Virus record (IMG/VR): IMGVR_UViG_3300048629_000034
Span: 1-64,000 of that record
DNA from: a virus
Lineage: Duplodnaviria > Caudoviricetes
Length of the DNA: 64,000 nucleotides
Strand: one strand, 5' to 3'
Under the pieces are notes generated by a model, which was not told the DNA's origin, searched no databases, and saw nothing but the letters and a program-made list of their open reading frames with translations. This document shows, piece by piece, positions 8 through 62,936 of the stretch. The position numbers were made by a program, and so were the translations under genes. Every line of letters starts with the position of its first letter. The first letter of the stretch is position 1.

Positions 8-2023
8 TTAGCATCCATCCGAGAAATTTTTATCATTGTCTATATTTTCAAGCAATCTTGCTGAAGCACTATTTATATCAAAAATCATTTGTTCTATATT
101 TTTATTGTGTTCTTCTATATTGTCGTTTTTTATATATTCATTTCTTAGGTTCATCAATATGCTTGGGAATGCTGTTTTCCAGTATCCATTATCCTGATTG
201 TGAGTTATTTTGTTAGGATAAGTATCTACCAGTAATTTCTTGATGTCGTTATTTTGCTCAACTGAGGCTTTTATTAGTTCTGTCATAAGCTTGTATGAAT
301 TATCTTTGTCTGTGCCTTTTTTCCCTGCTATTTTTATACCAGCAGACTTGTTGTATTTACTATATATGTCACTATCGAATTTACCACTCTTTAATGTTTG
401 ATATGCATGCTCCACACTATAGTATTTTTTACCGTTATACATAAATTCTCTTTTAGCCAAATTACTCAATTGACTATTCTCATTAGAACCATACCATATA
501 TTTATAATGCTTGTATCAATGCCTTCCATATGATCTGTATACAGAACCAATGCTTGCAGATGACTGTATTTATCATTTCTTCCTGTACCACGATATGATA
601 CTGTTTCATCTATAATTGCATTACCGTTATCATCCTTAGGCATGACTTCTGTTATATTCTTACCGATATGCTGTCTTTTTTTATCAAGTATTTTATATTT
701 CTCATCAGTTTGACTTGGTATTATGCCCTTATATTTTCCATTCTCTATGAACTCTTTTGAGCTTTTATCGCTCATCAACCAGTTGTAGAATATCTCAGTA
801 GCCATACCGTTGTCTTTTGTGTTTATTTTTATGTATGGTAACTTTGTTAAATTAGCTTGTATGTTTTTACCCAGCGCCAAAGCAAATGGGTTGCTATAGT
901 TATATGGCTTGCCTCTACCTTCATTTGATGCTCTTTGTGCTACAATCTCATTCTTCCAGAACTTACTGCTATTATCCATATCATCAAATGCTCCACTGAA
1001 GTCGATTTTACCTAGTTTTTCCAGTAGTTCAGTATCAGGCTTAATTTCTTTTTTTATGTCAGTTTTATAATAATCAGCAAACAGTTTATGTATTTTATCG
1101 GATACTTTGTCTATTGTCTCTTGATCATAATGTGGCGCTGGTACCCATTCGTTAGTTTCTTCATCTTTGTTGTCGTATATTTCGAGTTTTCTAGCACCAA
1201 TTCCAGCAAATTTCATACCTTTGGTTATTTTAACTTTATCGTCTTTTGTTTGCTCAAACTTTCTTTTATTGTAATTGAATTTGTACCAGCTAAGGTCTGT
1301 AGGATTAAGCACGTATATGTCTCTATTTGATGCTTTTGCAATTTCTATAGCAGTATTGGTTCCTCCAGAGCCACTTGTTTTGTCGTCAGTTAGCTCTGAT
1401 ATTGCAAATATTGTATCTGATTTTCTTACTTGTGATACATTTCTAACCTGAAGTCTCTGAGGATATGTTGCTTTTGATTGCTCTAGTGGATATTGATTTT
1501 CGAACACATTACTATAGAATTCCACATTTTCTCGATACAGCTCATCAGACATTACAGCTCCGTATTTGCCTTTTAGTAATCCTGCTAAGTAGGATTTATC
1601 TCCTTTGCTATTGCCATATCTTGCAGTTATATGATTATTTTTTATGTCATTACCATACTTAGAGCCAATAATATCGAACAGTGCATCAGCACCTCTCGCA
1701 CCACCACTTGTATTTATTGTAGCATCACTATTCGGAATTTCATCAAATCCATCTATCGTAGACAAATCTAATTTTCCAGATTTTGCAGCTTTACTCAACC
1801 TATCACTATTCTTCTTGTATATTTTAATTTCAGGAGCAGTTGCATTTTCAAGCTCTTTTATTTTATTGATTATCTCACTATAATCTTGACCATTATTCGA
1901 TATTAATTCTTTTGCAATTTGTTTTATGTCGGTTAATTTATTATTTTTTTTATCAGCTTTACTACTAGATATACTATTTAGTATTTCAAGCAGTATATTA
2001 TTTAATTTGTTACATTGTGACAT
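8..2023 (-). CDS. Multidomain protein: SLOG (cpYpsA-like) domain plus C-terminal NADAR domain; probable virion cargo
   Basis: SGGARGAD and GGTNTAIEIA...FAGIGAR match SLOG motifs; NIWYGSNENSQLSNL...YYSVEHAYQ matches NADAR. Lies directly downstream of vRNAP. ATG at 2023 has an AGGAGA SD. Confidence 0.7.
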   Translation of the reverse strand: MSQCNKLNNILLEILNSISSSKADKKNNKLTDIKQIAKELISNNGQDYSEIINKIKELENATAPEIKIYKKNSDRLSKAAKSGKLDLSTIDGFDEIPNSDATINTSGGARGADALFDIIGSKYGNDIKNNHITARYGNSKGDKSYLAGLLKGKYGAVMSDELYRENVEFYSNVFENQYPLEQSKATYPQRLQVRNVSQVRKSDTIFAISELTDDKTSGSGGTNTAIEIAKASNRDIYVLNPTDLSWYKFNYNKRKFEQTKDDKVKITKGMKFAGIGARKLEIYDNKDEETNEWVPAPHYDQETIDKVSDKIHKLFADYYKTDIKKEIKPDTELLEKLGKIDFSGAFDDMDNSSKFWKNEIVAQRASNEGRGKPYNYSNPFALALGKNIQANLTKLPYIKINTKDNGMATEIFYNWLMSDKSSKEFIENGKYKGIIPSQTDEKYKILDKKRQHIGKNITEVMPKDDNGNAIIDETVSYRGTGRNDKYSHLQALVLYTDHMEGIDTSIINIWYGSNENSQLSNLAKREFMYNGKKYYSVEHAYQTLKSGKFDSDIYSKYNKSAGIKIAGKKGTDKDNSYKLMTELIKASVEQNNDIKKLLVDTYPNKITHNQDNGYWKTAFPSILMNLRNEYIKNDNIEEHNKNIEQMIFDINSASARLLENIDNDKNFSDGC

Positions 2024-2034
2024 CAACTCTCTCC

Positions 2035-5000
2035 TTATTTACAGTTTTCTATTTTTATTTTATCTAATATTACATTCAATGTAGCAAATAATCTCGGTAT
2101 AGTCTTTTTCTTATTTGGTTCAACTAGATCATCTAAGTTGTTTATTTCGTCGATATTATCCAGTTTCTTCTCAGCAAATATACTAGCATCTCGATATGTA
2201 TCTTTTGTACCAGGCAGAGCATCGGCCATGAATGATTTCACATTATCTATTATACTATCAGTGTCTATATTTGATTTATTATCTACATTAGCACTATGCC
2301 CAGCTTCTTTACTGTATACCATTTGATGAACTTCTACTGGCAATTTACTGTATAGCTCAACTCTTTTGTTGTTGATTTTAACTTCTTCCTCCATGTTTTT
2401 AAGCATACTCTCGATGTCAATTGGACCTCTGTCGGTGAAGTTATCGTATTCCACACTAGCAATTATTTGATCTTTTTTCGAAGCATTCTTATTGTCATTG
2501 TTTAATTCACTGACTATATCGTCAAACCCATTATTGTTGGCAAATTCTATTGATTCTTGTAATGATTTCAGTGCAGAATCATATATGTTCCATTTATTGT
2601 TTAATTCATAGAATAATTTATTATACCTTTTAGCTATTTCATCCATAGTGTATGGATTGGCTACTAATGCATCAAATACTTGTTTTACATCGAACCCTTC
2701 CATTATCATACTCATTATTGCTCCATCTAGTGTATGAATCGGCAGTACACCACCAGCACTTCCTGATGCAGTTACAGTTTTTCTAACTACTGCTGATTTA
2801 GTTGATTTTATGTCTTTAGTTTCACCATCAGCACCAGTTATTGTTAGCTCGTCTTTCAGAGCTACAGTTACCGACTTTCTTTTTGTTTTATCATTTGAAT
2901 TTTGGAATATACCAACTCCATCTTTTTTGCTTGAACTTAATGGAGTTTTCATAGCAGGATAAGCCTCAATCATTGATTCTCTGATTTTAGTCATATCCTC
3001 TATAGTAAGCATCTCAACTGACTTATCGTTAGCTTTAGCAAACTCTTCTTTTTTCTTATCTAGTACTTTATTATATATCATTACTGATATCTTCATAGCA
3101 TTGTTTATATTATTATTTGCCTTATGGAAGTGAGAGTGGCTCTCTTTTAATATATCAGCAGCAGCCATACCGTATGTATTCGAGAATATATCTCTAATCG
3201 CCGTACCTATGCTACCTGTGTAATCAACTCCATCCTGTACTGATTTAGCTTGGACCATGATTGCTTCTGAACCTTTATATTCAAGTATATATGCAATTTT
3301 TCTCATATTTGAACTTGATGTAGTAACCTCTAGCTCTACATCTTTGTTTTCTTTTTTTCTGTTTGTATTTATTTGTTTAACTATATCATCTATAGTAGTT
3401 AATCCAATTGTCATAGGAGATGACTCATACATACTATCTGGTATTAATTCTTTGATTATTTTCCATTCCATTACATCTTCTTCAGCGATGTTGTCAGTAC
3501 CCATTACTTTTTTTGTGAATGTATTTAGGAACTCTTTACTTAGGTCATTACCTATCCCAATTGCTATTGACTTGCTTCCTGAACCATATGCATCTTTCAT
3601 CAGTGGGAATTTCATGATATCTCTACCATCTTTTGTAACCACTAATGTACCACCATTATCTTCAACGAATTCAAACTCATATCCGGACTTAAGCAGATGT
3701 TGCGCATACACAGATGCCTTTATTATTGAACTAGCCTTTTTACTCTTTGAATCAGCCTCTTCTCTCTCTCGTGTTTGTTCTAGTATCTTGGTTAAACGAC
3801 CCAATAATTTGGCTAAGTCCTCGTATAAGTCATCCATTGTGCTGAACATGTCGTTTGGTGACTTATCTCCGATTGAATCTTGCGGATAGTAGAATACACC
3901 AGTCTTTTTTGATTTACTGATTTGTGTATCGTAATTTGGGAACGGTATTTGCATAATCTTGAATGCTGGACCATTTGTCTTTCCATCTGATTCTACAGTT
4001 AGTGTTGTCTTGACTGACTTATTACCGTCTTTTCTTGCTTTATCTATTTTAATTAGCGTATCTAATGCAAGTTCCGTTTGACCTATGAACTCATAGTGCA
4101 GCGATATCTCTTTACCGTTGACTGTAATTTCAATTGAATCTTTAGCATCTGGATCTAGTATATAGTCATTAACTATTTGTTGTAATTTTGCCACATCAGT
4201 TTTTAGTATTTCGTCAGCAAATACATTAATCTCTTCGTCGGTTTTTCCTTCGAATTTCATACCAAATGATTGTGCTATTGCTTTTTTGAATCCTAATCTG
4301 TAGTTACCTATTTCAATCTCATACTCATCATCTGACTTATTGAACAGGAATCTAGAGAAGTGCTTATCTCCTTGATAATCTCCAACTCCTGGGTCCGTCA
4401 TTGTTCTACCACTCTTAGCTAGGAAGTAGTCAAGCATTATCTCTCTGTGAGCTTTTGGATCTGAATCTATCCTATCATAGTGTTCCAGTAATGTATCTAT
4501 ATTATCATCTATCGACCTATTTAGTCCTTTTTGAGCTTCTATCATGTCGAACATCGTATGTTCTTTTTTTAACTCATCTATATCTTTCCAGCCAAGCAAT
4601 CTCTTGTATTTTAGTACTTTCTTTTCTCTCTTCTCAGAACCAATCTTACCGAACATCTTACCTATTAATTCTGTATTCATAGTAAGTACTCTGTTCTCTT
4701 CGGTAACAATTGCATCAGTGTTAGTTTTTGAACCAATATTTAACGGATTATTTCTAACTTTAACTCTATAGTCTTCGTCGTGTTTCTTCGTTCTGGTTCT
4801 TGGATAGTTAGTTATTGAATCATCTGATATTTCATCTGCTATTGCGTTTAATTCTTCTTTGCTCTCATTGATTGTTGCGATGTGTAACTTTTGACCACTA
4901 TTTTTTATTGAACTATCGTACTCTATGAATTTATTATGCAGTTTAACCATTGGTGTAGTTGTTTTTTCGTCTGTACCATTTAGCTCTAAAAACTCAACCA

Positions 5001-8000
5001 TCTTTTGTTTTTCTAGGTATAGTAGTGCAGCCATACCTAATCCTGCAGCATATTGTTCATACACTCCGTCAACTCCACTATCCTTTGGTTTTAATCCAAG
5101 TTGATTAATTATTGCTCTACCAATCGTGTCAGCTACATATACTCTAGGGATACCTTTGTTTGCATACTCTGTTAAGTGAGCTGGAGTTATATCATCTTCA
5201 CTTATATTTAGGAATGTAGACAGTTTATTTGAGTCCATACTAATCCAAGTTGAGCTTGACCTATTGAATGCAGATAATGCTTCTATCGAAATTGCTAATG
5301 CAACATTATCATTAACTGGAGCATTATTTTTAGCTTCCGAGAAGTCATACATTAATTGCAGCGATGGATTATTAATTACATGCATTGTACCTTTTTTGTC
5401 TTCTGTTCTTATGTCTCTATTTAGTAGTCCATCAAATATATTATGTATATCCTTTTCTTCGTAGAATTTAACTAGCTCAGGAAACTCTTCTTTGATCATA
5501 TCGTGTTCGTTTTCAAATTTATCACTAAATGCATATGTAGCAAATACTGTATGCTTACCGTCTTTTATATCGAACACTTCATTTGGTCTCAGGTGCTTGT
5601 TTTTATCAGACAACCTGTTTGTGTTAATTATATTGTGTATGCTTAATATCTCTTTATCTTTTATTATCTCTAATCTTGAATCTCTGAGTTTATCTGCCTT
5701 ATTTCTTAGCTTAGCTTCTCTTTTTGGAACTACATTATTGGTTCTGGTAACTAATTGCTGTTGTTTATCATTTAATTCTTTTTGTTTTGCATCGTATTTT
5801 TCATTTAACCTAACTCTTATATTACTAAGCACGCCATCTATTAATTTTTTGATTTTCTCACCATCAGACTCTATGTTTCCAGCTATTATTAGTAGCTCTC
5901 TTGCTATTGAGCTAATACTATTTATCGGCTCATTTTCTCCAGTGTCTTTTATGTATTTAAGCAGTGTAGTTTTTATTTTGTTAGCAACAGCAGATCCGTC
6001 TGTCTTTGATTTCTTTATATTATTTAATTCTTGTAGTAATTTGAATAGTTGTCTGTTATCTGCATCCAATTCCTCTATTTCTTGGTTTAGCTCGTCCATG
6101 TTGTCTTTATTTTTTGAACCAATTCTAGCCGCATCTCTTCTTAGTAGCTTACCAATTAATTCATTTACATATTCTTCTCGCTTCTTTGCTTTCTCTTTTA
6201 GCTTGTTATAGCTTATTGTTATTCTACCAATAAGACCTTTATTTGATTTAATTTTCTTGTATGTATCTTTTATATCTGCATTTATCTTATCTAACTTATC
6301 TTTTTGGCCAGCTCTATAATCTGAGTTTTCCTTTTTTGTCTGAATCTCTTTGTAGCCTTTTATTTCTTTTAATCCGCGACTACTGATCTTTTCTAGTATC
6401 AGCTTCTTTCTGTCGTTTTGGTATATATCTTTAGTAGTATAACCATGTTCATCAGCAAGTTCTTTTATTTGTTTACCATTGTTTTTAGCAAATTCGCTCA
6501 GCTTTGCAGTTGCTTCACGATAATCAATCATATCTGAACTATATTGCTCATCTGTGTATTTGTCGTTGCTTGAGCCAGCTTCTAGCTTATCTAGTGCAGA
6601 ATTAATATTATCTTTGATTTCATCTAATCTAGTTTTTGTATCTGGCTCCGATTGTTCTTCATCAGCTTGGTCCTCAATCTCATTATTATCATTTTTGTCT
6701 GGATTTTCTTGTTTTGGTTTAGGCTCCACTGTTTGTTCATCGAACGGAACAGCAGCAAGCTCTCCATTCATCGTTCGTTCTATTTCATCTTTACTTGATT
6801 GCTGTTGTGCAATTGGTTCTGATTGATTATTTGCATTAGTATCAGTTTTGTCTTTATTTATATGCTCAAATGCAGTACCATTGCTATGATTTATATTTGC
6901 AATTTCGCTCATCATTTTAGCTACATCACTAGTGTTATTTGCATCCAAGTCTGTCATCAGAGCATTAAGTATCATATCATCTCTGTTGATTGCATTTATT
7001 GTTGTATTAACTCCAGTAGGTAAATACAGTTTATCTTTTTGTGCATTATCAATTTTGTCACTATTAGCTATTGCTGTATTTAGTAGTGATCTTATTTGGT
7101 CTTGTGGATTAATTGTAAATATAGCACTTTCGCCATCTGCACTTACTTTCTTAGCGGGCTTTTTAGTGTTAGACATTGGAGCAGCATATCTTTTTTCAAT
7201 ATCTTTTAGTGGGTATTTACCGCCCTTTATATCTGCTTTTAATTCAGCAGGTATCTGATATTCATCCTTGCTTAGCTTAGCATCGCTGTCGCCAGTTATT
7301 TTAGTGTATAATTCATTCCATTTTTTATAGGAACTAACTACATTACCACTTGTACCATCTTCCAGAAATTTTACATAATTGATTATTTGTTTTATTCTGG
7401 TATTCTTATTAGTGCTGAACCCATAATTATTCAAGTGTGCTTTATTATTTTCAATCATACCCTCAACTGCTTTGTTTAACACACCTGATTTTAAGCTTAG
7501 ATGGTGGCTGTATTCATTTAGTCTACTCTCTAGCTTATCTACTACTTTTTCTAGGCTCTTTGTATTTTTGCTTTCAGTCTTTAATTTAGCTATCTTCTTC
7601 AGTTGATTAACCACACCATCTTTCCCTAGGAATATCTCACTCGATACCTTTTCATGTAATGGAACATCTAACGAACTATCATCTTTGATCATGTCTCTTA
7701 GATTACTATTTATTGATTGAATACTATCTATGTTGTCTACATATTTATGTATCACTTGCTTATCTTCAGCAGGTATTGATTTGTCAGCATTTAATGCTTC
7801 TAACAATTTGCTTATCTTTTGTCCATTTAACGCATCGTTAGCAGACTCATCATTACCGAATGCATATGCGAGTGTATTTATATAATCAGCAGTTGAACCA
7901 CGACTCTCTCCTTCTGCATACATAGTCTCGTTAGTCATATTGTCATATTTGTCTGCATAGTGTTTGTCTATTGTATCCTGCATATACTGTTTAGCTTTAT

Positions 8001-10314
8001 CTACTTTTCTTTGTAGTTGAGTATTCTTATCTGACAGTATCTCATTATCTTCTTGATTATCCATATCTTTTTCGAACTCATCAAGTATAGCTTGAGCTGT
8101 TTTTACGTCTCCATTCGCCATTAGTCCGTCGAATCCAGGAATATATATGTTATCTATATTTGAACCAATTATTCTCTCATTGTTCATCAATTCTATCTCG
8201 GCAGTAGTTTCTTCTGGAGTCATATCTTTGGTTCTATTTGCTATGTACTTGGCTTCTTTTCTTTTATCGTACTTGGTCTTAGCTATCGAACCAATATCTT
8301 TTGCCACATGTAATCCAGCTCCAGGCACTGCACCTAATGCACCTGACCCTAATCCCATGAATGCTCCAGCACTTGCTTTGGTTCTAGTATCTTCACCCAT
8401 AGCTTCTTCTAGTCCAACTTGACCTATCATATTACCATCTAAATCAGTTTTGTTTGTACCATACACTCTGTTGAATGCATCTACGAACGATTGAGTATAT
8501 TCTTGACCGAACTCAGCTAGTCCAGCTGTTGCTAATTTAGTTCCTGCTTGACCTAGTGAACCAATGAATTTAGCAGCAGCATTTTTATCTTTGAATGCAT
8601 TCATTAATCTTGTAGCTGATTCCCTAGTCGGCAGACCTTTAATCGTATATTGTAGCGATGCTTTTTCTAGTAGTGCTGCAGGTAGGTTCAGTGCGAACAT
8701 TCCAGCTACTTTGCCTAGTGAGGCCATCTCTCCACCATTAGCCGCAACTACATCATCCAATTGATCGTTAGTCCATGTAGTTGCCATACCAATTTCGTTT
8801 GCATGATTCGCTATGAATAACTTAGCCTTGTCTTTCATTGGCAATGCTTTCATCATCTCAGCTGATTTAGCTAACTCTGCTTTAGCTGCATCACCTTTTA
8901 GTTTCTTTTTAGCTATTGTTTTTTGAGCTTTAGCTGTTTCTTCTAGTGCATCTCCAAGTAGACCCTTGAATCCTTTTTTAACTAGTTTACCAACTACTGC
9001 TGCTCCTGAAGTAGCTAACCAACCCAAACTGTATACGAATTGATCTGCGGAATCTGTAACTTTGTCTAGCATATCTAGTGCTACTTCGCCGTTACCTTTT
9101 TTGAATAACTTTCCATATGTACTTGGATGCATAGCTTCTACACCATCAGTAAGTTTACTGTATAGTCTATCTACATCAGCAGCTATATTTTGTTGTCTGG
9201 CTACATCTTGACCAACTACACTTTGTACGAACAATTGTCTATCTTTCTCCGACATTATGTCCCATTTGTCCATAGCATCAGCAGCATCTTTGAATCCGAA
9301 TGCATTTAGTGTTCTAGCACCTGCATTACCTATTAATTCAACCACCGAGTCTGCTTCACTTGTTAATCTATCTAATCCACCAGCTGTGAATTGTTTAATT
9401 ATATTTGATGGAGCCAATGAATCCCATAAGGTACTACCACCTTCTTTTGTGAATACCATATCTTTGATGTCTTTTTTTCTAGCAACTCCACCTAAGTTGT
9501 AATCAGCCACATCGTCAGATTCCATTATATTTGGATTGTATTCTTCGGTGTATCCTCTTTTTGCTCCCATCAATTTGTGCAGATAATCACCATTGTCGTA
9601 TGTTCTATTACCTAGTGCTACATCGGAACCATGTATAGTAGCCTCAGCAGTTACTGTATCATTGTATGGTTTTAATATCGCCATACCTACATCACCTAAT
9701 TTTCTTGGAGTATATCCTGCACCTGTAGTTGGTTTACCATTCCAGTTATATGTATCTAGTACATCTGAGTCTGCACCTTGACCGTATGTATGTCTAGCCA
9801 TCCCCATTTTAGTTGAACCATCATTAGCTAATCCTTGATACAGTGTACTTGCTTTACCATTGTATGGTTTTTGTTTCCATTGACCATCTTCGTAGTAGTG
9901 ATGGATATATTGGTTCTGTACACCAGTTTCAGTTAAGTAATCATCGGCTTGGTCACTTATGTATTTTGCCATTTGGGCAGGAGTTTGCAATGCATGATTT
10001 CTGATTTTATTTGCATTTGAGTAGAACTTGCCATCCTCGACAAATCCAGTATTCTTTTGCAATGGTATTGGATTATTAGTTATACTTCCATTAGTAGTAT
10101 TTTGATTTATTCTTCCGTCTATGCTTGCTTGATTTAGTGCATTGAACTGTGAGTTTTGACCCAACTTCTTAGTCAATCCTTGTAGCTTCTGCTGAGCTTT
10201 ATTGTCTAATTGTTGTTCTAGTGTTGGTTCTTGAGTCTGTCCGTATAGGTACTTCTCTGCATCTTGTGTTGATATATTTTGGCTGTATGCCAGGTATTCT
10301 GCATCTGTTAACAT
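2035..10314 (-). CDS. Virion-encapsidated RNA polymerase (N4 gp50-like), 2759 aa
   Basis: Motif A TVESDGKTNGP, motif B RDIMKFPLMKDAYGSG, IHTLDGAIM and motif C KQVFDA resemble N4 mini-vRNAP. Giant size and a single Cys. Confidence 0.93.
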   Translation of the reverse strand: MLTDAEYLAYSQNISTQDAEKYLYGQTQEPTLEQQLDNKAQQKLQGLTKKLGQNSQFNALNQASIDGRINQNTTNGSITNNPIPLQKNTGFVEDGKFYSNANKIRNHALQTPAQMAKYISDQADDYLTETGVQNQYIHHYYEDGQWKQKPYNGKASTLYQGLANDGSTKMGMARHTYGQGADSDVLDTYNWNGKPTTGAGYTPRKLGDVGMAILKPYNDTVTAEATIHGSDVALGNRTYDNGDYLHKLMGAKRGYTEEYNPNIMESDDVADYNLGGVARKKDIKDMVFTKEGGSTLWDSLAPSNIIKQFTAGGLDRLTSEADSVVELIGNAGARTLNAFGFKDAADAMDKWDIMSEKDRQLFVQSVVGQDVARQQNIAADVDRLYSKLTDGVEAMHPSTYGKLFKKGNGEVALDMLDKVTDSADQFVYSLGWLATSGAAVVGKLVKKGFKGLLGDALEETAKAQKTIAKKKLKGDAAKAELAKSAEMMKALPMKDKAKLFIANHANEIGMATTWTNDQLDDVVAANGGEMASLGKVAGMFALNLPAALLEKASLQYTIKGLPTRESATRLMNAFKDKNAAAKFIGSLGQAGTKLATAGLAEFGQEYTQSFVDAFNRVYGTNKTDLDGNMIGQVGLEEAMGEDTRTKASAGAFMGLGSGALGAVPGAGLHVAKDIGSIAKTKYDKRKEAKYIANRTKDMTPEETTAEIELMNNERIIGSNIDNIYIPGFDGLMANGDVKTAQAILDEFEKDMDNQEDNEILSDKNTQLQRKVDKAKQYMQDTIDKHYADKYDNMTNETMYAEGESRGSTADYINTLAYAFGNDESANDALNGQKISKLLEALNADKSIPAEDKQVIHKYVDNIDSIQSINSNLRDMIKDDSSLDVPLHEKVSSEIFLGKDGVVNQLKKIAKLKTESKNTKSLEKVVDKLESRLNEYSHHLSLKSGVLNKAVEGMIENNKAHLNNYGFSTNKNTRIKQIINYVKFLEDGTSGNVVSSYKKWNELYTKITGDSDAKLSKDEYQIPAELKADIKGGKYPLKDIEKRYAAPMSNTKKPAKKVSADGESAIFTINPQDQIRSLLNTAIANSDKIDNAQKDKLYLPTGVNTTINAINRDDMILNALMTDLDANNTSDVAKMMSEIANINHSNGTAFEHINKDKTDTNANNQSEPIAQQQSSKDEIERTMNGELAAVPFDEQTVEPKPKQENPDKNDNNEIEDQADEEQSEPDTKTRLDEIKDNINSALDKLEAGSSNDKYTDEQYSSDMIDYREATAKLSEFAKNNGKQIKELADEHGYTTKDIYQNDRKKLILEKISSRGLKEIKGYKEIQTKKENSDYRAGQKDKLDKINADIKDTYKKIKSNKGLIGRITISYNKLKEKAKKREEYVNELIGKLLRRDAARIGSKNKDNMDELNQEIEELDADNRQLFKLLQELNNIKKSKTDGSAVANKIKTTLLKYIKDTGENEPINSISSIARELLIIAGNIESDGEKIKKLIDGVLSNIRVRLNEKYDAKQKELNDKQQQLVTRTNNVVPKREAKLRNKADKLRDSRLEIIKDKEILSIHNIINTNRLSDKNKHLRPNEVFDIKDGKHTVFATYAFSDKFENEHDMIKEEFPELVKFYEEKDIHNIFDGLLNRDIRTEDKKGTMHVINNPSLQLMYDFSEAKNNAPVNDNVALAISIEALSAFNRSSSTWISMDSNKLSTFLNISEDDITPAHLTEYANKGIPRVYVADTIGRAIINQLGLKPKDSGVDGVYEQYAAGLGMAALLYLEKQKMVEFLELNGTDEKTTTPMVKLHNKFIEYDSSIKNSGQKLHIATINESKEELNAIADEISDDSITNYPRTRTKKHDEDYRVKVRNNPLNIGSKTNTDAIVTEENRVLTMNTELIGKMFGKIGSEKREKKVLKYKRLLGWKDIDELKKEHTMFDMIEAQKGLNRSIDDNIDTLLEHYDRIDSDPKAHREIMLDYFLAKSGRTMTDPGVGDYQGDKHFSRFLFNKSDDEYEIEIGNYRLGFKKAIAQSFGMKFEGKTDEEINVFADEILKTDVAKLQQIVNDYILDPDAKDSIEITVNGKEISLHYEFIGQTELALDTLIKIDKARKDGNKSVKTTLTVESDGKTNGPAFKIMQIPFPNYDTQISKSKKTGVFYYPQDSIGDKSPNDMFSTMDDLYEDLAKLLGRLTKILEQTREREEADSKSKKASSIIKASVYAQHLLKSGYEFEFVEDNGGTLVVTKDGRDIMKFPLMKDAYGSGSKSIAIGIGNDLSKEFLNTFTKKVMGTDNIAEEDVMEWKIIKELIPDSMYESSPMTIGLTTIDDIVKQINTNRKKENKDVELEVTTSSSNMRKIAYILEYKGSEAIMVQAKSVQDGVDYTGSIGTAIRDIFSNTYGMAAADILKESHSHFHKANNNINNAMKISVMIYNKVLDKKKEEFAKANDKSVEMLTIEDMTKIRESMIEAYPAMKTPLSSSKKDGVGIFQNSNDKTKRKSVTVALKDELTITGADGETKDIKSTKSAVVRKTVTASGSAGGVLPIHTLDGAIMSMIMEGFDVKQVFDALVANPYTMDEIAKRYNKLFYELNNKWNIYDSALKSLQESIEFANNNGFDDIVSELNNDNKNASKKDQIIASVEYDNFTDRGPIDIESMLKNMEEEVKINNKRVELYSKLPVEVHQMVYSKEAGHSANVDNKSNIDTDSIIDNVKSFMADALPGTKDTYRDASIFAEKKLDNIDEINNLDDLVEPNKKKTIPRLFATLNVILDKIKIENCK

Positions 10315-16329: not shown

Positions 16330-19300
16330 TTACACCATGTTATTCACTGAAATAACACCTTGGGTACAGTAAGGTTCTGCAGAGCTATCATCATAATCCT
16401 TACCAATAGTCCTGAAGAATAACGGAGCTCCTCTAATAACTCCACGTAATCCACCGATACCTGAGTAAGAAGAGTCGCTAGCATTTGGATCCCTTGAGAC
16501 TTTAATTTCGTTAAAAAAGTATAAATACCCATTATTCTCCTCCCTAATAGTCGTAAGAGTTATAGTGAACCCGTTAGAAGTAGTAGACGCAGTTGTGGTA
16601 CCCCATCCACTGTTACCAATAGCAGATATACCGTTAGCCCCCAATGTGTAATGAACATAACCATTTACATTAGAAGCTGAGCTAGATATAAATGTTGTAG
16701 TAATAGTATTGATTAAAGTATTACCTAGATATATATCTAGGTAGGAAGTACCAGTTAGATACTCGGTCACCCCAGAGTATGGATGAATAGTAAATACAAT
16801 ATCATCCACCTCTAAATACGGATCAGTACCTTTTACTAACTTATTGGTGCTAAGCGTAGCATAATCTGAGTATGAGTATAAAGGTACGTTAAATACTTCA
16901 GCACCTACTGGTACACTATACAAGTTAATATAGTCATAAGAAGTGTCATGGATAAATGAAGGTCTATGAGTATAAGAAGGTATTGAAAATGAACTTACAC
17001 TAGGTATCCTATATTCATCAGTACCACTTATATAAACAGCAGCAGGCATAGTAGTAGAGTTGTAGTCGGAAACAGGTATATGGTAGTTAGTAAGCACTTC
17101 TAGTTCTCCATCTAAGTCTAAGTAACTAGCTTTAATAACAGCTCCCTCAATGTAACTACCTATTAGCCTTTTACCAGTCAACTCGGTAGCGCTTATAGTC
17201 TCAGCAACTAGCCCAGTAGTATTGATTCTGTCAGCTAATATTGTCCCTGTAGTTATTTTACTTCCGTTTATTGTAGTAGTGTTATTGTTAATAGCATCTG
17301 CTACTTCTTCAGGACGTACGTAAGGGCTAAGGTCTATACTACTAACTTGACTATCCACATAATCAACATCAGCCAATATACCAGTAACAGTATCAGATGT
17401 CATAATTGCTATCTTCATTTGTGATATAGTACACACTCCAGTCCAACCTAATACGAACCAATCAGTAGTACTATTTAGTAGTATATCCTCTACTGTACCT
17501 ACTTGTGTAAGTGTATCAGCCTCTCTAATTATACCAAATGAACTATTTGTACTTGTGTTAGGTTGTATTAATCCTTCTACTATATACCATTTGTCATTAA
17601 CTAATGTAGCATTATGAGGTATAGCAGTTGTAGTGTATGTATCTCCATCTATTTGAATTACACTCATAGTATAATCTGTACCTGGTTTGATTGCAAACTT
17701 ATAATAGTAACTACTGTACATATCTTCGATGTAAGGTGAGTACACTTCATCAGAACTGCTAGGTAGTGCTATCTGAGGCTCTGCAAACGCATCAGCACCA
17801 ACTGATACTGAAGACACTGGATTACCTATGAATTGATATCCTGCATTGTCATCACTACCTATAAGACTGGTAGTAGGGATTAAGTTATCAGTTATATTGA
17901 TGTTCCTGTCTTTAAAAGACACAGTATTTACTGTAGATGAGATTGCTTCATCTATTGTTCCCAGCTGATTATTACCGAATGTAACTTTACCGTTAAATAG
18001 TGTCTCTCCGTTTCTTATACTAAATGTAGGTGTGCTATTCGTTCCATCTGAGTCACTAGTAAATTTAAACTTATCAGCATTGATCCAGAACTCACTATCG
18101 TAGCTTGGATTATTACCACCTTCTCCTCTAATTGCCTCAGACGTTAATCCAAATCCGCTTTTGTATGTGTGACCGTCGAGTGTGATATTAGAGCCATACT
18201 TGAAGTTAGTCTCAACCTTATCAGCAGTAACTTTTATTGTGTCCATTAATACTGAGTTACCACCAAGTGCTCCACCTATGTCAGCAGCTATTTTACCAGC
18301 ATCTTTATACTCTGGAATCCATCTATCAGTATTGTTAGGGACTTCATCACCATCTTTTGGGTACGGATCAGTAACTTTTATTACTACGTTGGGTTCAACT
18401 GTATCATCAATTATATTGTCAACTGGTTCGCTATATAGTGCATTTCCATCAGTATCACGTTCTTGCACATAGGTATTCACACCGTCAACTATTTCTTCTT
18501 TTAGTATTGGCATAACCATTCCGTCTGGAAATAAGTATGCTTCTTGATTTTGTATTTGTTCACTAACGGCTATCATTCCTTCAGTCTTCCAGTCATCATT
18601 CCATGACGATTCTTCACTATCCCATATAGTAGTAATCAGTATGCCATCAGTATTATTATGTATCCACATATCACCGTCATTCATAGTGTTTATGGTGCTT
18701 GGATCAGATTCTTGTCTATATACAGTAAGCTTACCGTCAGCAGTGTATTGTGATTCAGCTGCCTTTATGTATCCCTGAGCAAGTGCACCTTCTTGTAATT
18801 GCCAGTTTGTACCATCATACCTGTATGCTTTATAGTTATTTGGATCCAATGTATTAACATACCAATCTCCACTATTTGCATTAGAAGGAGCTGTGTTTGT
18901 ATATGAAATGTTGGTAACAGAGTTATCATTACCAACATAGCCTTCTAAATTTATTATATCAGTAGCTAATGAATTATCTCTTATAAGAGACCAATCAGTT
19001 ACTACGCTTGGAGAGTCTTTCAGTGCTCTATATGGAGTATTATCACTACCATAGTACAGTATGTCCCCTTCACGAGCATCACTAATAGCATATGTGCTTA
19101 AATACCAACTAGATATCTTACCATCGGCAACAGCTTCAGCATCTTTAGCAGCTTTATAAGCTTTTGCTACAGAGTTATCACTCTCAACCCAAGTAGTACC
19201 ATCAAATCTGTAAGCCACGACTGTGTACTCAGCAGGGTTAGTATCTGCTACAACAGAGTGTGTATTTATCCACCAATCTCCGATATCGTAGTCAGTGTCT

Positions 19301-22518: not shown

Positions 22519-22544
22519 TTAATTCTCCTTGTTGATTTTACTAG

Positions 22545-23822: not shown

Positions 23823-24154
23823 TATTGAACTCCTACTAATTGTAATCCGGCGATAATATCTTCATGAACTTTTGATTTTACATTTTTGGCTTCGTGTTCG
23901 TACACTATTGTAGCTTCTAGTATTGTTTTGCTTATTTGAGTATTTTTCAATTCTTTTTCTAGTTCGAATTGTGTAGCTGATTGGAACATGCCTGGAATTA
24001 TCTGACCATATATCATACCGACATCTGATTGTTTTAGTAGCTGGTCATCCATGGCCTGTTTTAAGTGATTGTTTACACTAGCCATAGCTTTATCAAATGT
24101 ACCGTTGCCATGTATAGAACCATCAGTTATATTATCGAATGAAATTAATGACAT
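23822..24154 (-). CDS. N4 gp54-like structural protein (short)
   Basis: GNGTFDKAMASVNNHL...ATQFEL resembles the N-terminus of the N4 gp54 family. Confidence 0.55.
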   Translation of the reverse strand: MSLISFDNITDGSIHGNGTFDKAMASVNNHLKQAMDDQLLKQSDVGMIYGQIIPGMFQSATQFELEKELKNTQISKTILEATIVYEHEAKNVKSKVHEDIIAGLQLVGVQ

Positions 24155-24238
24155 TGTCTTCTCTCCAATTGTATTTTAGTTATGATACCTACACATCTCT
24201 TAATTTATCATTAAGTGTGCAGATATCATTTTTTGGAG

Positions 24239-24928: not shown

Positions 24929-24974
24929 AATTTTTCTTTCCGACAAAATGATATTTAAGAGGAATTTACGAAGT

Positions 24975-25234
24975 GTCGAGGTTCGTGTATCCAGATGTTA
25001 ATCCTGAACTCTTAATAAACAAGTAGCCACGAACCTCGACGAAAGAGACTACCTGTTTATTAAAAGTTCATCTTATTTACTTTGCCTAAAGGTAATATCA
25101 AGTGATACTACTACTTTAGTCTAGATTACGACCCCTAGGCAAAGTAAACTTTTGTTCAATTAAGAACCTGTAGTGAAAGCCCGTGTAAAGTTACTCGAGC
25201 ATTCGTGAGATTGGACCCTCACTATAAATTCTTA
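24975..25234 (-). ncRNA. Candidate structured leader/antisense-type RNA upstream of rha
   Basis: 13-bp complement 24975-24987/25028-25040; 15-bp hairpin 25012-25026/25049-25063; 13-bp IR 25076-25088/25136-25148. Confidence 0.4.
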
Positions 25235-25276
25235 TATGTATTATATATTGTATTAGCTTAATTCTATATTAGAATT

Positions 25277-25315
25277 AGAACCAACACTAACTATATAGTA
25301 ATTAGTGTTGGTTCT
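25277..25315. terminator. Hairpin, probable terminator
   Basis: AGAACCAACACTAA pairs with TTAGTGTTGGTTCT just downstream of 25325-25897. Confidence 0.55.
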
Positions 25316-25324
25316 TTTTGTACG

Positions 25325-44149: not shown

Positions 44150-47100
44150 TTAAACATAGCTTGAGAATGCGTTGGTTCTATTTCCTATACTTTTTCTTCT
44201 GTTCGCAAACAGTCTCATGCCTCCAGATGCCTGTGTCCCTACATTATGACCAGCATTTTTTGACATCTCTTGACCTGTCATGCCGCTCATTGGGTAGTTT
44301 ATTTGCATCATAGCTATTTGACTAATCAAATCTGGCCCATCATCATGTCTAGAATTATGAACTATGCATCCGTTAACTACAAAGTTGCTGTAACCAGGAA
44401 CCTCTATATCGTAGACAGGCTCATTCTTTCCTGTGTTTTTTATTTCTTCTATAGAAACTAGATCTGCATTCGACAGAGCAATATTTTTGTCGAATAGTAT
44501 GTCCCATAAATTTTTTTCCACATTCTCTACATTCGCATTCGAATTTAATTGTTTTTCTAGCTTCGTCAATACATATTTTTCCGCAATATTTAGTTTTGTT
44601 TGAAACTGGTGAGACAAATTTCTTTCCGCAATTCTTGCACTCTCTTTCTTCTGACCTAAGTAATCTTTTTTTCTCATTATGTATTTTTGTACATTTTGGA
44701 TTGTTGCATAAAATTTGGTTATGGCTTTGTTGCATAACCTCATTTGAACAGATACTACACTTGATAACTTGAAGCGGTTTATAATCGATATTGAATCTAA
44801 GTTTCTTTGCTTTACTTCGACACGATTCTCCGCAATATTTTGCATCGTTTCTTGAGTTTTTGTGCATAATAAACTCTGTTCCGCACCATTTACATATTCT
44901 GTTGATCTTTCTATTCTGTTGTTTTCTTGCAGATGCTTTTTTTCGGTATGATTTGTCTCTGGCATAGAAATGATCATTTGATCCTTTGTGTATTTTTTGA
45001 TGCTCTTGTCTGGTAAGAATGATGAGATTACATGCTTCATTGTTGTCTTTATTTTCGTCAACATGATGCACATCAAACCCTCGCGGGATTGATGTGCCAG
45101 TTTCTCTTTCAAACACTTCTCTGTGTAACCATTTTCTTTTTCCGTTAATATTTCTTGTGGATTGATAGTATCCGTTTGGTTTTTTTCTCCACTTGAATCC
45201 ATATCTTTCATCTTGCATATACTGTTCCTTATCAATACATCCCAATGCCTCAGATCGTCTACTCTTACATAACCTCTTGCTGTCATAACCCTATGACAAC
45301 CCGTAAGCCTCATAATTAGTCCATCTGCGGTAACTAGTTCATATATCTCTTTATTTCCAGTAAATATAGCATTTTTTGGTTTAACATATGCTGAATACGA
45401 CCCATTTGTTGCTAGTACCATATCCTCATTAGTAATATCAGTTATATACTTTTCTCCGTCAATACACTTAACCAAAGTATCAGCAGAGAAACAACCGAAG
45501 CTGTCGTGTTTTATCATCATCAACTGCTCCATAAGTACTTTCATGTCAGGAATATCCTGAAGCTCTCTCGGAAACCATATCTTTCTGTTCTGGAATAATG
45601 GTAGAGTCATTCTGAACCTCCAGTGCTTATTACCACCTTCCAGTCTACTTGTTATCCCCTCAGAGCCAGCTTTACTACCTTTGGCTCTAGCGAATGTGAA
45701 GAATATACCTTTTCTAGGCATTCTCTCTCTAACTGCTTCTAGGTGAGCTCTTTGGTTCCCATCTAATTCTATACCAACTTCTATGTATCTAGCACCAAGT
45801 GAAGTATATAGTTGCGCAAACCTAAATAACTCATCGTATTGATCTTCTATTGTACATTTTCTAAGCGACAAATCCAACATAAAGTGATCCATATTACTAT
45901 TTACAGCCCACACAGCTATACCACTATAATCACCATTTAGATCATTACTTGAAGTAAAATCTGTTGTGATATATATATTGTAATCACTCATTCTTTTTTG
46001 GATATCTACTCTATTGAACCATTGTATGTAGTTCTGCTGTAGCATTTTATCTTCAGATGTACTTGTTCGCAGATAATGCTCTTGCATTAGTTTCTTCATT
46101 GGTTCTGGATTTCCTGCATCTTTGGCTCTTTGTGCTCTTCGATAATCCCTCATACAGTTCGAGAAGCTATGTCTGTCTGGCCATACTGATACAAATTCAT
46201 CCTCTACCATATCTTCTCTTATTGATTCACCTCTAGGGAACACAACTGGAAGCCAAGTACCTTCTTCAATTCTTCTTGTAACGCTATCATTCTTTCCATA
46301 TGGAGTACCAATTATTACTGCGAAGTTTTTATTATTATTTAAACCAGGAAGCACATCGGCTTCAATAGTACTTTCTATGCTTGTCATTATTGATTTACTT
46401 GCTGCAGCCTTCTCGCCCTTTATCAAATCGTCAAATATTGAGGCATCCGGCCTAGCTAGTCCTGACCTAGTTCCTCTAACCCCAGCTTCAGCTCCAACGC
46501 CACCCAATGTGAATGTTCTAAGCATTCTGCCTGGAACAGTATCTTCTGACTTTCCTTGTTTTATTACATGGTCTTCATATGCTCGTAATTCTGACTTTGT
46601 TATTGGCTTTCTAACAAACAATACTTCATTTACATTTAGTTTCCATGACTCGAAGAATTGTTGCATATATGGACTCTCTAGGAATACTTGCTTAATCATC
46701 CCCATTGTGGTTTTTACATTATTCTCCATTGTGTCCCCTACATATAGCATGTAGTTTATTTTTCCGAAACCTGGAAGTTTCCCTTTAATTGCTGCGAACA
46801 TAAATAAATATGTTACAATACTGCTCTTGCTAAATTCCCTGCAAGACAATATTGCTATTCTGTCATTCATTCCAAAGTAATCAATATTACGAACCATAAA
46901 GAATGGCTGAACATTTGGTTGTCTGAATATACAATCAACGAAGAAGTAATGTGGCAAACTATTGCTGTTCTCTGGTTCTCTACCTAGTGCCATACGAATG
47001 AATGCCATAAACTCTATGGCATGGTCACTTGGGATATACCATTTTAACTTTAGATCTATATTATCTAACAACTTATCCATAGTTATTATCTTATCTTCGA

Positions 47101-47212
47101 ATGCTTTCAATACTATTCCATCAGAACCAACCTCCCACTTGTGATGAGGGTCGACTCCATCTGGATATATTGCAGCTACACTATTTGGTAGCTTATCTGC
47201 TGGTATAAGCAT
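44150..47212 (-). CDS. terL: Terminase large subunit (N4 gp68-like) containing a 380-aa intein
   Basis: CREFSKS Walker A variant, GVRGTR...RPDASIFDDL, IIGTP, WPDRH, YITTDF, HDD. Confidence 0.93.
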   Translation of the reverse strand: MLIPADKLPNSVAAIYPDGVDPHHKWEVGSDGIVLKAFEDKIITMDKLLDNIDLKLKWYIPSDHAIEFMAFIRMALGREPENSNSLPHYFFVDCIFRQPNVQPFFMVRNIDYFGMNDRIAILSCREFSKSSIVTYLFMFAAIKGKLPGFGKINYMLYVGDTMENNVKTTMGMIKQVFLESPYMQQFFESWKLNVNEVLFVRKPITKSELRAYEDHVIKQGKSEDTVPGRMLRTFTLGGVGAEAGVRGTRSGLARPDASIFDDLIKGEKAAASKSIMTSIESTIEADVLPGLNNNKNFAVIIGTPYGKNDSVTRRIEEGTWLPVVFPRGESIREDMVEDEFVSVWPDRHSFSNCMRDYRRAQRAKDAGNPEPMKKLMQEHYLRTSTSEDKMLQQNYIQWFNRVDIQKRMSDYNIYITTDFTSSNDLNGDYSGIAVWAVNSNMDHFMLDLSLRKCTIEDQYDELFRFAQLYTSLGARYIEVGIELDGNQRAHLEAVRERMPRKGIFFTFARAKGSKAGSEGITSRLEGGNKHWRFRMTLPLFQNRKIWFPRELQDIPDMKVLMEQLMMIKHDSFGCFSADTLVKCIDGEKYITDITNEDMVLATNGSYSAYVKPKNAIFTGNKEIYELVTADGLIMRLTGCHRVMTARGYVRVDDLRHWDVLIRNSICKMKDMDSSGEKNQTDTINPQEILTEKENGYTEKCLKEKLAHQSREGLMCIMLTKIKTTMKHVISSFLPDKSIKKYTKDQMIISMPETNHTEKKHLQENNRIERSTEYVNGAEQSLLCTKTQETMQNIAENRVEVKQRNLDSISIINRFKLSSVVSVQMRLCNKAITKFYATIQNVQKYIMRKKDYLGQKKESARIAERNLSHQFQTKLNIAEKYVLTKLEKQLNSNANVENVEKNLWDILFDKNIALSNADLVSIEEIKNTGKNEPVYDIEVPGYSNFVVNGCIVHNSRHDDGPDLISQIAMMQINYPMSGMTGQEMSKNAGHNVGTQASGGMRLFANRRKSIGNRTNAFSSYV
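44354..45493 (-). mobile_element. Intein (aa 574-953 of TerL)
   Basis: Block A CFSADTLV, block B LTGCHRVMT, block F VYDIEV, block G CIVHN followed by +1 Ser. Confidence 0.93.
44421..45218 (-). CDS. HNH homing endonuclease with four Cys4 zinc-finger repeats, overprinted inside the intein
   Basis: LHREVF...VHHVDENKDNN...NL...EH..IH; four CxxC...C(x3-5)C repeats; AAGGA SD at 45226-45230. Confidence 0.85.
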   Translation of the reverse strand: MQDERYGFKWRKKPNGYYQSTRNINGKRKWLHREVFERETGTSIPRGFDVHHVDENKDNNEACNLIILTRQEHQKIHKGSNDHFYARDKSYRKKASARKQQNRKINRICKWCGTEFIMHKNSRNDAKYCGESCRSKAKKLRFNIDYKPLQVIKCSICSNEVMQQSHNQILCNNPKCTKIHNEKKRLLRSEERECKNCGKKFVSPVSNKTKYCGKICIDEARKTIKFECECRECGKKFMGHTIRQKYCSVECRSSFYRRNKKHRKE

Positions 47213-55086: not shown

Positions 55087-55260
55087 ATATCTTTGCCACT
55101 CCTACATTAGGCAATTATATCTAGATAACGGAAATTATCCATAACATAACAATAGTAGTTATGGAATATATTTATCGAACCAATGACGACTCCTACAATA
55201 GTTGTTGGTTCTATTAAGTATATATCGCATTATATACAAATCAAATACAAAGGAAACATT

Positions 55261-55551
55261 ATGTTAGAAATAGGAATAGCAATAGCTGCAGGTATATATA
55301 TCTGGATGAATCGTGAGAGAGTTAAAACTTACTCATCAACTCAAGAGGAAGCGTCTAAAGTGGCAGCAAAGAAAGCTGAAGTAGATATGCAAGAAGATCT
55401 AGCTGAGCTTGAAGAAGAAGTACTGGAGACAATCCAAAATAATAACGGTAAGTGGCATTCAGTTAAATCAATTGACAAACTAATTAGAGAAGCTAAGAAG
55501 AAAACACTAGCTGACCTGCAACAAGTACCAACAAATACACCACCAGTGTAA
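55261..55551 (+). CDS. Early membrane-anchored protein, paralogue of 51909-52241
   Basis: AAGGA SD before MLEIGIAIAAG; ends NTPPV. Confidence 0.7.
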   Translation: MLEIGIAIAAGIYIWMNRERVKTYSSTQEEASKVAAKKAEVDMQEDLAELEEEVLETIQNNNGKWHSVKSIDKLIREAKKKTLADLQQVPTNTPPV

Positions 55552-55666
55552 ATTCATAGAACCAATTATCAGTATTGGTTCTGTTGAGTTTATTATATAT
55601 CGCATAGTAAACCAAATCGTTTTATGTATCACAGATAGTGAGAACCAATCATCCAAAGGAAACAAA

Positions 55667-59206: not shown

Positions 59207-59377
59207 AAACAAACAAATAAACATAACGTAAATACAATAATCCACATATACAGAAACTATCCTTTCAAGATAATTTCCAAAAAATCCTTACAAATTTTTA
59301 ACAAAATAAACAACAAACTCTGTATGTGTGGATCATTGTGTTTACAAACACTTATATTAATAACAAAGGAACCAACT

Positions 59378-59662: not shown

Positions 59663-59686
59663 TTTTATAACAAAAGGAACCAAACT

Positions 59687-61591: not shown

Positions 61592-62041
61592 ATGAATAGA
61601 GAATTAAAAGATCAAAGAACATATAAGATACTCATATTTAAGAAATTAATAGAGGATTTTATATCCCTAATTGATCCAGAAACCAAACACAAACTATATA
61701 TAGAGTACACTAATGGTATTGATGAAAAAAACACAAACAATTTGTATGCACTGTCAAAGAAAATGAATTACCAAAACTGGTCTGAATATATACTATACTC
61801 AACCATGCTAGGTAGGATTTTAAATACAGAATTAACTCAATATCTACCTAAAGTTCTAACATTCGAGGAGATAGCACTACTCTGCAAGACTGGAACAAAG
61901 CAACGTGCAGAACAGTTAACAAAAGGTGCCATAGCGAAGATTAAACATAGTAAAAATTTTGACATATTATCGAATTTTAAATTGAGCTTTGAAACAAGGT
62001 ACAATTGTGAACAGATAAAAGACGTTGATGGCGAACATTAA
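61592..62041 (+). CDS. Protein with a sigma70 region-4-like HTH
   Basis: LTFEEIALL...TKQRAEQL...AIAKIK. Confidence 0.6.
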   Translation: MNRELKDQRTYKILIFKKLIEDFISLIDPETKHKLYIEYTNGIDEKNTNNLYALSKKMNYQNWSEYILYSTMLGRILNTELTQYLPKVLTFEEIALLCKTGTKQRAEQLTKGAIAKIKHSKNFDILSNFKLSFETRYNCEQIKDVDGEH

Positions 62042-62411
62042 CTAGTAGCGGGCGCAGTGGATATTACCCGACTATTAAACGTAATTTGTTTATTTTATTT
62101 TTCCAAAATATAGTAGATATGCGACAATTAATATCGACTACATTACAATTCTAATAGGCATTACAATTGTAAAACTCTCATGAACCAACAAAAAACTATA
62201 ATAAGCAGTGTCTTTAGCTATTCAATACTTATTGTAGTTCTATTTTGGTTCATATTTTAAATACTCCATATAGACATGCACTCAATATCATACAAACATA
62301 TAAAGGGGTGCCTTGTACTAAAATTGCTCCCTGATTTACTATCATAGAAATGCGCACTCTGATACGAGTGTATGTCTATATGGATCACTACAAATAACAA
62401 AGGAAATAAAA

Positions 62412-62936
62412 ATGTCAATATCATTAGCTAAACTTAGCAAATATGTAGGAGAAAATTCTAATTATTTTGCATCTATGAAAACAACATCAATTGAAAAGTT
62501 TAATTGGATCTTCTCGTTCGATACTAAGAACCAAATCACCTCAATAAACATGGCTAGAGACTTCCAGGAAGAAACTTTTAGAATGATATATGAACATTAT
62601 AATTCGTTCTCTAAAGACACACACTATGGAACATGGTTAGGAAAGTGTGGTATATACTCAAATAATCTAGATCAACAGGCAAGAAATAGAATAATTTCAA
62701 TATCAAGAGGGGAAGCATTATCTATGTTTGGACATAGGTGGAATTTTACGAAAAGCTGTTTAGAAGAAAGAAAACATATAGAAGCGAAAATAGATAATAT
62801 TAGAAATAATATTTCAGTAGAAGGAACCAATATATCATTCAACATAAAGGAGTCGGATCAGAAACTAATTCTTTATGTATTATCCAATGCGATGGATGAA
62901 TTGTCAATAGATATACAAAAGGGAGAAAACAAATGA
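62412..62936 (+). CDS. Hypothetical protein (tandem paralogue 1)
   Basis: AAGGA SD; similar to the next ORF. Confidence 0.6.
   Translation: MSISLAKLSKYVGENSNYFASMKTTSIEKFNWIFSFDTKNQITSINMARDFQEETFRMIYEHYNSFSKDTHYGTWLGKCGIYSNNLDQQARNRIISISRGEALSMFGHRWNFTKSCLEERKHIEAKIDNIRNNISVEGTNISFNIKESDQKLILYVLSNAMDELSIDIQKGENK

Follow-up and report, generated by a model that had tools for sequence, protein, structure and literature searches.

Recognition words in known systems

DNA uptake sequences (DUS) of Neisseria and uptake signal sequences (USS) of Pasteurellaceae occur at about 1 copy per kb. They lie on both strands and in genes, form terminators as inverted pairs, and exist in dialects. HIP1 is the highly iterated palindromic word of cyanobacteria, and its function is not established. 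Here we describe the heptamer GAACCAA (complement TTGGTTC) in a window of 64,000 nucleotides, positions 1 to 64,000 of IMG/VR record IMGVR_UViG_3300048629_000034, which makes up the initial 64 kb of a phage contig of 113,115 bp. This word resembles DUS and USS in its density, its presence on both strands, its in-gene copies, its terminator pairs, and its lineage dialects. DUS and USS belong to the genomes of competent bacteria, whereas our word was found only in lytic phages and was absent from the sampled bacteria. It resembles HIP1 as a genome-wide, selection-maintained short word without a proven reader. HIP1 is palindromic, whereas our word is asymmetric and its presence correlates with a specific candidate reader gene, an N4-type primase.

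The Chi site of E. coli and Salmonella is GCTGGTGG (PMC12315714). In phage LLS, 20 of 23 Chi copies are oriented (PMC12315714). Our word is like Chi in the Chi-saturated phages LLS and P1 in that it is the commonest oligomer of the genome, is kept by selection, and occurs about once per 0.5 to 2 kb. Chi is an oriented signal of a host enzyme and is enriched in the host. Our word, in contrast, has no polarity and no enrichment in the sampled bacteria. It differs from the Chi of known hosts and changes between sister phages.

The closest precedents for the candidate reader are primases. The archaeo-eukaryotic primase (AEP) primase-polymerase of the vent phage NrS-1 recognizes 5'-TTTGGTTA-3' via its helical bundle (PMC8718748). 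This site has TTGGTT in common with 5'-TTGGTTC-3'. It is likewise a short asymmetric word, on a single-stranded template, and its reader is an AEP with a helical bundle. The T7 gp4 primase uses sites of the form 5'-(G/T)(G/T)GTC-3' and ACCA or ACCC primers, and T7 Okazaki fragments are 1 to 6 kb (PMC12839067). The TGGT/ACCA-primer core is shared with our word, and the same-strand spacing of our word is on the Okazaki scale. T7 specifies 3 to 5 bases, whereas 7 to 8 are specified here. The NrS-1 and T7 sites were defined biochemically and are unreported as genome-wide enriched words, whereas ours was recognized by its enrichment, which ranges from 13- to 150-fold across the phages described below. 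We found no report on the word itself, on enriched words in N4-like phages, or on enriched primase sites, in a literature search that covered few subscription journals and not the older N4 literature.

Copy number and selection

The window contained 97 exact copies of GAACCAA/TTGGTTC (54 plus, 43 minus). Dinucleotide-preserving shuffles of the window gave 5.69 +/- 2.63 copies, with a maximum of 13.

544..62830, both strands: dispersed GAACCAA/TTGGTTC copies, n = 97, from exact counts and shuffles

A preliminary description of the window had reported at least 90 copies against about 7 expected from composition. All 17 of the coordinates that it quoted carry the word, and the strong excess was borne out by the shuffles. 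The whole genome contained 167 copies (93 plus, 74 minus), which are evenly spread. This frequency is about 15 times too high for a 113-kb genome. GAACCAA was the commonest 7-mer in both the window and the whole genome, ahead of words made of A and T only. Its single-base variants had only 1 to 23 copies each and were 4 to 100 times rarer; the preliminary description had named equally frequent similar heptamers as counting against it. The flanks show a weak A/T preference before the word and a "not G" preference after it, and nothing else is conserved. The favored extended 8-mer was AGAACCAA, with 91 copies genome-wide versus 4.3 expected.

The copies occupy all six reading frames. Their coding contexts were E-P-x (40 copies), x-G-S (39), x-N-Q (21), R/G-T-N/K (15), L-V-x (13), and x-W-F (8). 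Noncoding DNA makes up 9% of the genome and holds 31 of the 167 copies, so that the word is 2.3 times denser there. Within genes, 136 copies were observed. Synonymous-codon shuffles gave 39.8 +/- 4.7 copies, and codon permutation gave 18.2 +/- 4.2. A synonymous shuffle that kept the context at codon boundaries gave 80.4 +/- 4.2. The z score of the excess was 13 to 28 across all codon nulls. Because the 136 in-gene copies exceed every codon null, the enrichment is real and selected, and it has altered codon and amino-acid choice. The word had earlier been proposed as a selected DNA signal with copies in different frames and in intergenic DNA, and a codon-shuffled null had been set beforehand as the test that might refute it. 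The excess remained under these shuffles, so the proposal was not refuted.

Dialects in N4-like phages

The phage of the window is N4-like, judging from its protein matches. The PHROG families matched by its portal, major capsid, terminase, virion RNA polymerase, and primase are those of N4-like podophages. The best cultured-phage matches of the portal were from Schitoviridae at about 34% identity, and the nearest metagenomic portal was 47% identical. A crAss-like assignment was dropped, as the PHROG and portal matches point to an N4-like phage.

In most low-GC phages with an N4-type primase, the top enriched 7- or 8-mer was a variant of xG-N-N-CCA-R. The forms include AGAACCAA, GGAACCAG, AGTACCAG, AGAGCCAG, and TGAACCAR. 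Their shared core is G-N-N-C-C-A followed by a purine (complement, 5'-Y-TGG-N-N-C-3'). The top word was of this family in whole genomes that have little else in common.

Phage of the window: top 8-mer AGAACCAA, 91 observed versus 4.3 expected
G409 (46 kb, 25% GC): top 8-mer AGAACCAA, 106 versus 1.3
G410: top 8-mer GGAACCAG, 143 versus 0.9
G412: top 8-mer AGTACCAG, 106 versus 1.4
G411: top 8-mer AGAGCCAG, 63 versus 0.5
G413: AGAACCA[AG]
G001: TGAACCAR

About 44 of the 56 primase-anchored IMG/VR loci had a family word as the top 7- or 8-mer, as read off the table. Additional dialects at these loci were AGAACCAC, GATCCAA, AGAACCCC, AGTACCAA, TGAGCCAA, and others. One primase-bearing locus, L481 (IMGVR_UViG_3300028534_000034), had a top word outside the CCA family, TGTAGCAAC, with 32 to 39 copies in 21.8 kb.

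The family is also present in cultured phages. E. coli phage N4 contained 67 copies of GAACCAG versus 3.8 expected and 34 of GAACCAGT versus 1.1 in its right 40 kb, as its top word. In Vibrio cholerae phage phi 1, GAACCAA was the top word with 116 copies versus 7.6. Salmonella phage FSL SP-058 contained TGAACCA 25 times versus 2.7 in 20.7 kb, and Vibrio phage pVco-5 contained 27 copies of GAACCAA and 31 of AAACCAA in 21.7 kb. A check on related phages had been proposed in the preliminary description, and it found the same word family as the most enriched in many N4-like genomes.

The dialects differ even between sister primases and sister phages. The first relatives compared were without the word, and close relatives of similar composition had different words or none. 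Pattern scans of IMG/VR retrieved word-rich contigs only remotely related to our phage, phi 1 among them; two-word scans were swamped by chance matches. Simple descent does not account for the distribution of the word. Of 38 word copies compared between phi 1 and VCO139, 33 were conserved against a background of 79%, a difference that is not significant in this underpowered test. One-off control words were as conserved as true copies.

Primase as candidate reader

The candidate reader is encoded outside the window.

Genome positions 92918-95032: N4-type primase-helicase gene, match to PHROG 2135 ("DNA primase")

A P-loop ATPase forms the N-terminal part of the protein; the AEP domain and, at the C terminus, a helical bundle follow. 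The AEP motifs DxD, sxH, and hD are present, with DxD at 502-504, His530, and Asp541-Arg542 conserved. In the structural model, which is confident (pLDDT 86.7), the AEP domain matches the PrimPol structure of cyanophage S-2L, and the helical bundle comes after it. As modeled, the gene encodes an AEP primase with intact catalytic motifs. Searches with the primase sequence against PDB and Pfam gave nothing significant, and the fold search alone was informative.

Shared proteins were compared by tblastn at 1e-6. The primase was the only protein of our phage that was detected in all of G410, G412, G409, G001, and phi 1. The word of G409 is identical to ours, while identity is 33% for its primase and 22% for its TerL, and its portal was undetected at this threshold; the portal of L184, a locus of G409's contig, scored 23%. 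Apart from these, G409 shares at this threshold only a Sak4-like ATPase, ThyX, and a small HNH protein with our phage. The portal and capsid of G409 fall in N4-like PHROG families, which places it, though distantly, in one assemblage with our phage. It is a complete phage of 46 kb and 25% GC with terminal repeats and an N4-type portal, capsid, terminase, and primase. It also encodes a 2,964-amino-acid protein at 19276-28170 (L414/L415) with no PHROG match. G409 may have a "mini" N4-like genome in which this protein is a virion RNA polymerase that has diverged very far.

Five N4-like phages (G419 to G423) are word-poor, and all five carry a degenerate primase ortholog. Four of them have lost both the His of motif II and the Asp-Arg of motif III, and in the fifth (G422) the protein breaks off inside the AEP region. 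DxD was lost as well in G420 and G421. All 24 aligned word carriers keep D-x-D, S/R-H, and D-R-[FY]-R. No match to a primase of the Toprim_2 or Prim-Pol family was found in the five word-poor relatives. Their best orientation-balanced words were only 3- to 6-fold enriched and were unrelated in sequence. G419 (L521-L527) contained TAGCTAA 141 times versus 29. AGCAACT and TTACCAA were found at 3- to 5-fold in G420 (L528-L532) and G421 (L533-L537).

On the portal tree the five word-poor phages fall in at least three places, and one is nested within a GAACCA-rich clade. Given this mosaic, word status follows primase type and not the phylogeny of the structural module. Word presence tracks the presence and type of the primase, with limited phylogenetic independence. 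The helical bundle was the most divergent primase domain in all pairs, whether the word was the same or different.

Hairpins, spacing, and strand bias

Six tight facing pairs of the word form stable hairpins at gene ends. Facing pairs that close hairpins had been noted in the preliminary description, and those proved stable (z from -3.4 to -6.5). Copies inside spacers of ribosome-binding sites, which it had noted too, are real and lie at 59369 and 59677.

25278..25314, unstranded: intergenic hairpin of a facing pair, about 14-bp stem starting AGAACCAAC, then a T-run on the plus strand; -20.4 kcal/mol, z -6.5
55177..55211, unstranded: hairpin of a facing pair with a stem of 11 bp, at the beginning of gene 55183-55551; z -3.4
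55559..55581, unstranded: hairpin of a facing pair, right behind the stop of gene 55183-55551; z -5.0
62182..62251, unstranded: long composite hairpin with a facing pair as its outer stem, downstream of gene 61592-62041; z -6.3
59369..59375, plus: copy overlapping a Shine-Dalgarno spacer (AAGGAACCAACTATG)
59677-59683: second Shine-Dalgarno-overlapping copy
8162..8384: four-copy run of alternating orientation (+ - + -) within a gene for 2,759 amino acids

The run at 8162..8384 exemplifies an excess of opposite-strand neighbors, with same-strand neighbors nearly absent. Neighbors less than 100 bp apart formed 17 convergent pairs versus 6 divergent and 3 direct pairs. The orientations in this genome are interleaved, with more alternations than chance predicts. 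Across five genomes, same-strand neighbors within 60 bp were almost absent. Same-strand spacing was somewhat more even than random in 8 of the 10 strand sets from these genomes, with a coefficient of variation (CV) of 0.73 to 0.92 versus about 0.97 for a Poisson process. The mean same-strand gap was 1.2 to 1.5 kb in our phage and 0.8 to 2.5 kb in the four others. Sites on both strands are spaced as Okazaki fragments are. The modest strand bias goes with the strand of the genome rather than with that of the gene; the phi 1 counts were 30/15, 34/16, and 14/7. Such a bias is expected of a replication signal, not of a transcription signal.

The middle promoters of N4 RNAPII have an AT-rich element from -7 to +2 and lie, in sense orientation, only in the left half of the genome (PMC4496689). 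The word does not fit a promoter of this type. It has 3 G/C, occurs within genes on both strands, and is dense in N4's right half.

Bacterial genomes

The word was not enriched in 401 Campylobacterota genomes, where it reached a maximum of about 0.23 per kb and at most about 2 times the reversed control. It was not enriched in one Photobacterium genome or in four other genomes. No sampled bacterial genome was above about 0.29 per kb or about 2 times the reversed control. An apparent "all plus-strand" polarity in Campylobacterota was discarded as an artifact of listing order; positions 1 to 200 kb of G017 contained 23 plus and 14 minus copies. A triple-word scan of 185,579 species genomes retrieved only chance matches, CRISPR-like arrays, and tandem hairpin arrays. 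The preliminary description had called for a check on candidate host genomes, and no sampled bacterium had the word at phage density.

Some of the local arrays were from Bacillaceae (L206; L241, Peribacillus sp. SCS-26; L252, Neobacillus; and L300), with a period of about 51 to 104 bp. Their units are hairpins of TAGAACCAA ... TTGGTTCTA and are unrelated to the genome-wide enrichment. L242, from a Thermoguttaceae metagenome-assembled genome (goat rectum), contained a 66-bp-period array of about 41 repeats with CAGAACCAAAATTCC at 1704-4332. It looks like a CRISPR array.

Proposed mechanism and alternatives

The reading that fits the evidence best is that the word serves as the preferred template recognition and initiation site of the phage's own primase. 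We consider this as probable as its opposite; the reader and the primer start are what we infer. GAACCAA would be this phage's version of a lineage-variable 7- to 8-base word, xG-N-N-CCA-R. Its putative template-strand form would be 5'-ACTGGTTC-3' in N4 and 5'-TTGGTTCA-3' in phi 1. In an AT-rich genome the word should occur by chance about once per 17 kb per strand, so selection would have seeded one per about 1.2 to 1.5 kb per strand, an interval on the scale of Okazaki fragments. The sites would be placed in any reading frame and by preference between genes. An intergenic facing pair would serve both strands and double as a terminator hairpin. The specificity of the primase would drift and the word would drift along, which would produce the dialects.

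More tentatively, with somewhat less than even confidence, we suggest that the word acts as a replication "bar code." The AEP primase-helicase would start lagging-strand primers only at the seeded, fully specified word of 7 to 8 bases, which would confine priming to phage DNA. Rapid coevolution of word and primase would leave every lineage with its own dialect. In this reading, the 60-year-old model phage N4 would have a form of self-recognition that operates in DNA priming, on which the literature search found nothing.

Several observations weigh against the primase as reader. To our knowledge, primases specify 3 to 5 bases, and a fully specified 7- to 8-mer is unusual. NrS-1 has a single copy of its own 8-mer, which is not enriched, and its primase is not BLAST-similar to ours. 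High-GC N4-like phages with an intact primase had weak enrichment only. The all-site spacing in our genome is Poisson-like (CV 1.0). Its minus-strand spacing is Poisson-like as well (CV 1.05), and its plus-strand spacing (CV 0.92) is within one standard deviation of Poisson. No orientation switch that might mark an origin was seen in eight genomes. G419 and G423 retain DxD. The degenerate orthologs resemble each other and may form a single old subfamily that module exchange has spread, so that independent events are few. The word and the type of primase are passed on together with the remaining replication module, and another protein of that module could be the reader.

Such a reader might be the Sak4-like annealing ATPase, the N4-type single-stranded DNA-binding protein (SSB), a helicase, or an unrecognized factor. 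It might act in loading or in recombination-dependent replication. G409 has the Sak4-like gene (95716-96396) at 38% identity, and this gene is syntenic with the primase and SSB genes in N4, phi 1, and FSL SP-058. Any replication-linked reader would be in keeping with the genome-strand bias and the even spacing. The Sak4-like protein, however, was undetected in G410, G412, G001, and phi 1 at the threshold used for the primase, and the word is missing where catalytic residues of the primase have been lost. We know of no sequence specificity in Sak4 or SSB proteins. AEP primases with helical bundles are sequence-specific (PMC8718748), which counts against Sak4 or SSB. We regard a reader elsewhere in the module as unlikely. 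The preliminary description had suggested a dispersed site for a phage or host protein; as to a phage protein, this type of explanation is probably correct. Its named candidates, ParB-like or helix-turn-helix proteins, are unsupported; tblastn found such proteins in G412 and G411 but not in G410, G409, G001, or phi 1. It had also suggested a self mark. Under that proposal a phage DNA modification would be directed at the word, or a phage nuclease or helicase would spare DNA that bears it. This would account for fast-changing specificities like those of restriction-modification enzymes. The word is asymmetric, is 7 to 8 bp long, and has dialects that switch quickly even between sister phages. 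The genome also encodes several nucleases and helicases. No methyltransferase or other modifying enzyme was found among the proteins common to word-bearing phages, within the annotated subset of genes. Targets of restriction-type enzymes usually show avoidance, which holds here for GATC and CATG, whereas the word is enriched. A self mark appears improbable.

Mimicry of a host signal would make the word a Chi-like attenuator of AddAB or RecBCD, as had been suggested for the window, or a host DNA uptake sequence. Its density, random spacing, in-gene presence, and use in terminator hairpins resemble uptake sequences, and phages saturated with Chi exist, Chi being the commonest octamer in LLS and P1 (PMC12315714). 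The word has no polarity, however, with 93 plus and 74 minus copies here and no switch in the eight genomes. Neither the 401 Campylobacterota genomes nor the Photobacterium nor any other sampled bacterium is enriched, a test that is indirect for our phage. A density of about 1 copy per kb throughout a host genome, as for DUS, was not found; local arrays were the only dense occurrences. The word family also occurs in phages of E. coli, Salmonella, and Vibrio, hosts with different Chi, and many dialects coexist among phages of the same sample series. Host mimicry is largely refuted and very improbable. The word might also be a functionless by-product of composition, of codon or dipeptide usage, or of mutational bias. 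Part of the excess does sit in a few dipeptides (E-P and G-S), and the context-preserving shuffle yields 80 of the 136 in-gene copies. This explanation is refuted by the use of six frames, by the 2.3-fold higher noncoding density, and by z scores of 13 to 28 under every codon null. Close relatives of similar composition with different words or none also speak against it, and its probability is negligible.

If the primase reads the word, this would be the first case of a long primase recognition sequence that visibly shapes whole genomes. Its effects would reach codon choice, amino-acid sequence, intergenic hairpins, and strand bias throughout a large family of phages. The specificity of N4-type primases, so far unstudied, would be predictable directly from sequence. 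For uncultured phages, the word would also give a simple genomic marker of the type of replication module and of its exchange. Tests of the prediction are feasible in phages that can be cultured, namely, N4 with E. coli, FSL SP-058 with Salmonella, and phi 1, JA-1, and VCO139 with Vibrio cholerae. Even with another reader, a 13- to 150-fold enriched, dialect-forming word in N4 is a concrete unexplained signal.

Genome background

The source habitat is hydrothermal-vent metagenomes, and the GC content of the genome is 34%. The first 150 bp of the contig (1-150) are repeated exactly at 112966-113115, beyond the window end. Either a circular assembly overlaps itself here, or the sequence belongs to a terminal repeat. 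The start of the contig falls within the virion RNA polymerase gene block, with giant open reading frames at 8-10314 and the PHROG 2206 core at 107887-112914. No tRNA genes were found in the phage, and a search of the genome collection for the host by way of NrdA homologs gave no result.

Short palindromes are strongly avoided in the window and across the genome. GATC occurs 266 times versus 491 expected, and CATG occurs 280 times versus 494. ACGT, CCGG, GAATTC (12 versus 42), and TCTAGA (30 versus 63) are also avoided. This avoidance suggests a host rich in restriction systems. The large terminase open reading frame at 44150-47212 of the window encodes 1,020 amino acids, and terminase profiles match only its ends. 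Judged by these profile matches, it is consistent with an inserted element.

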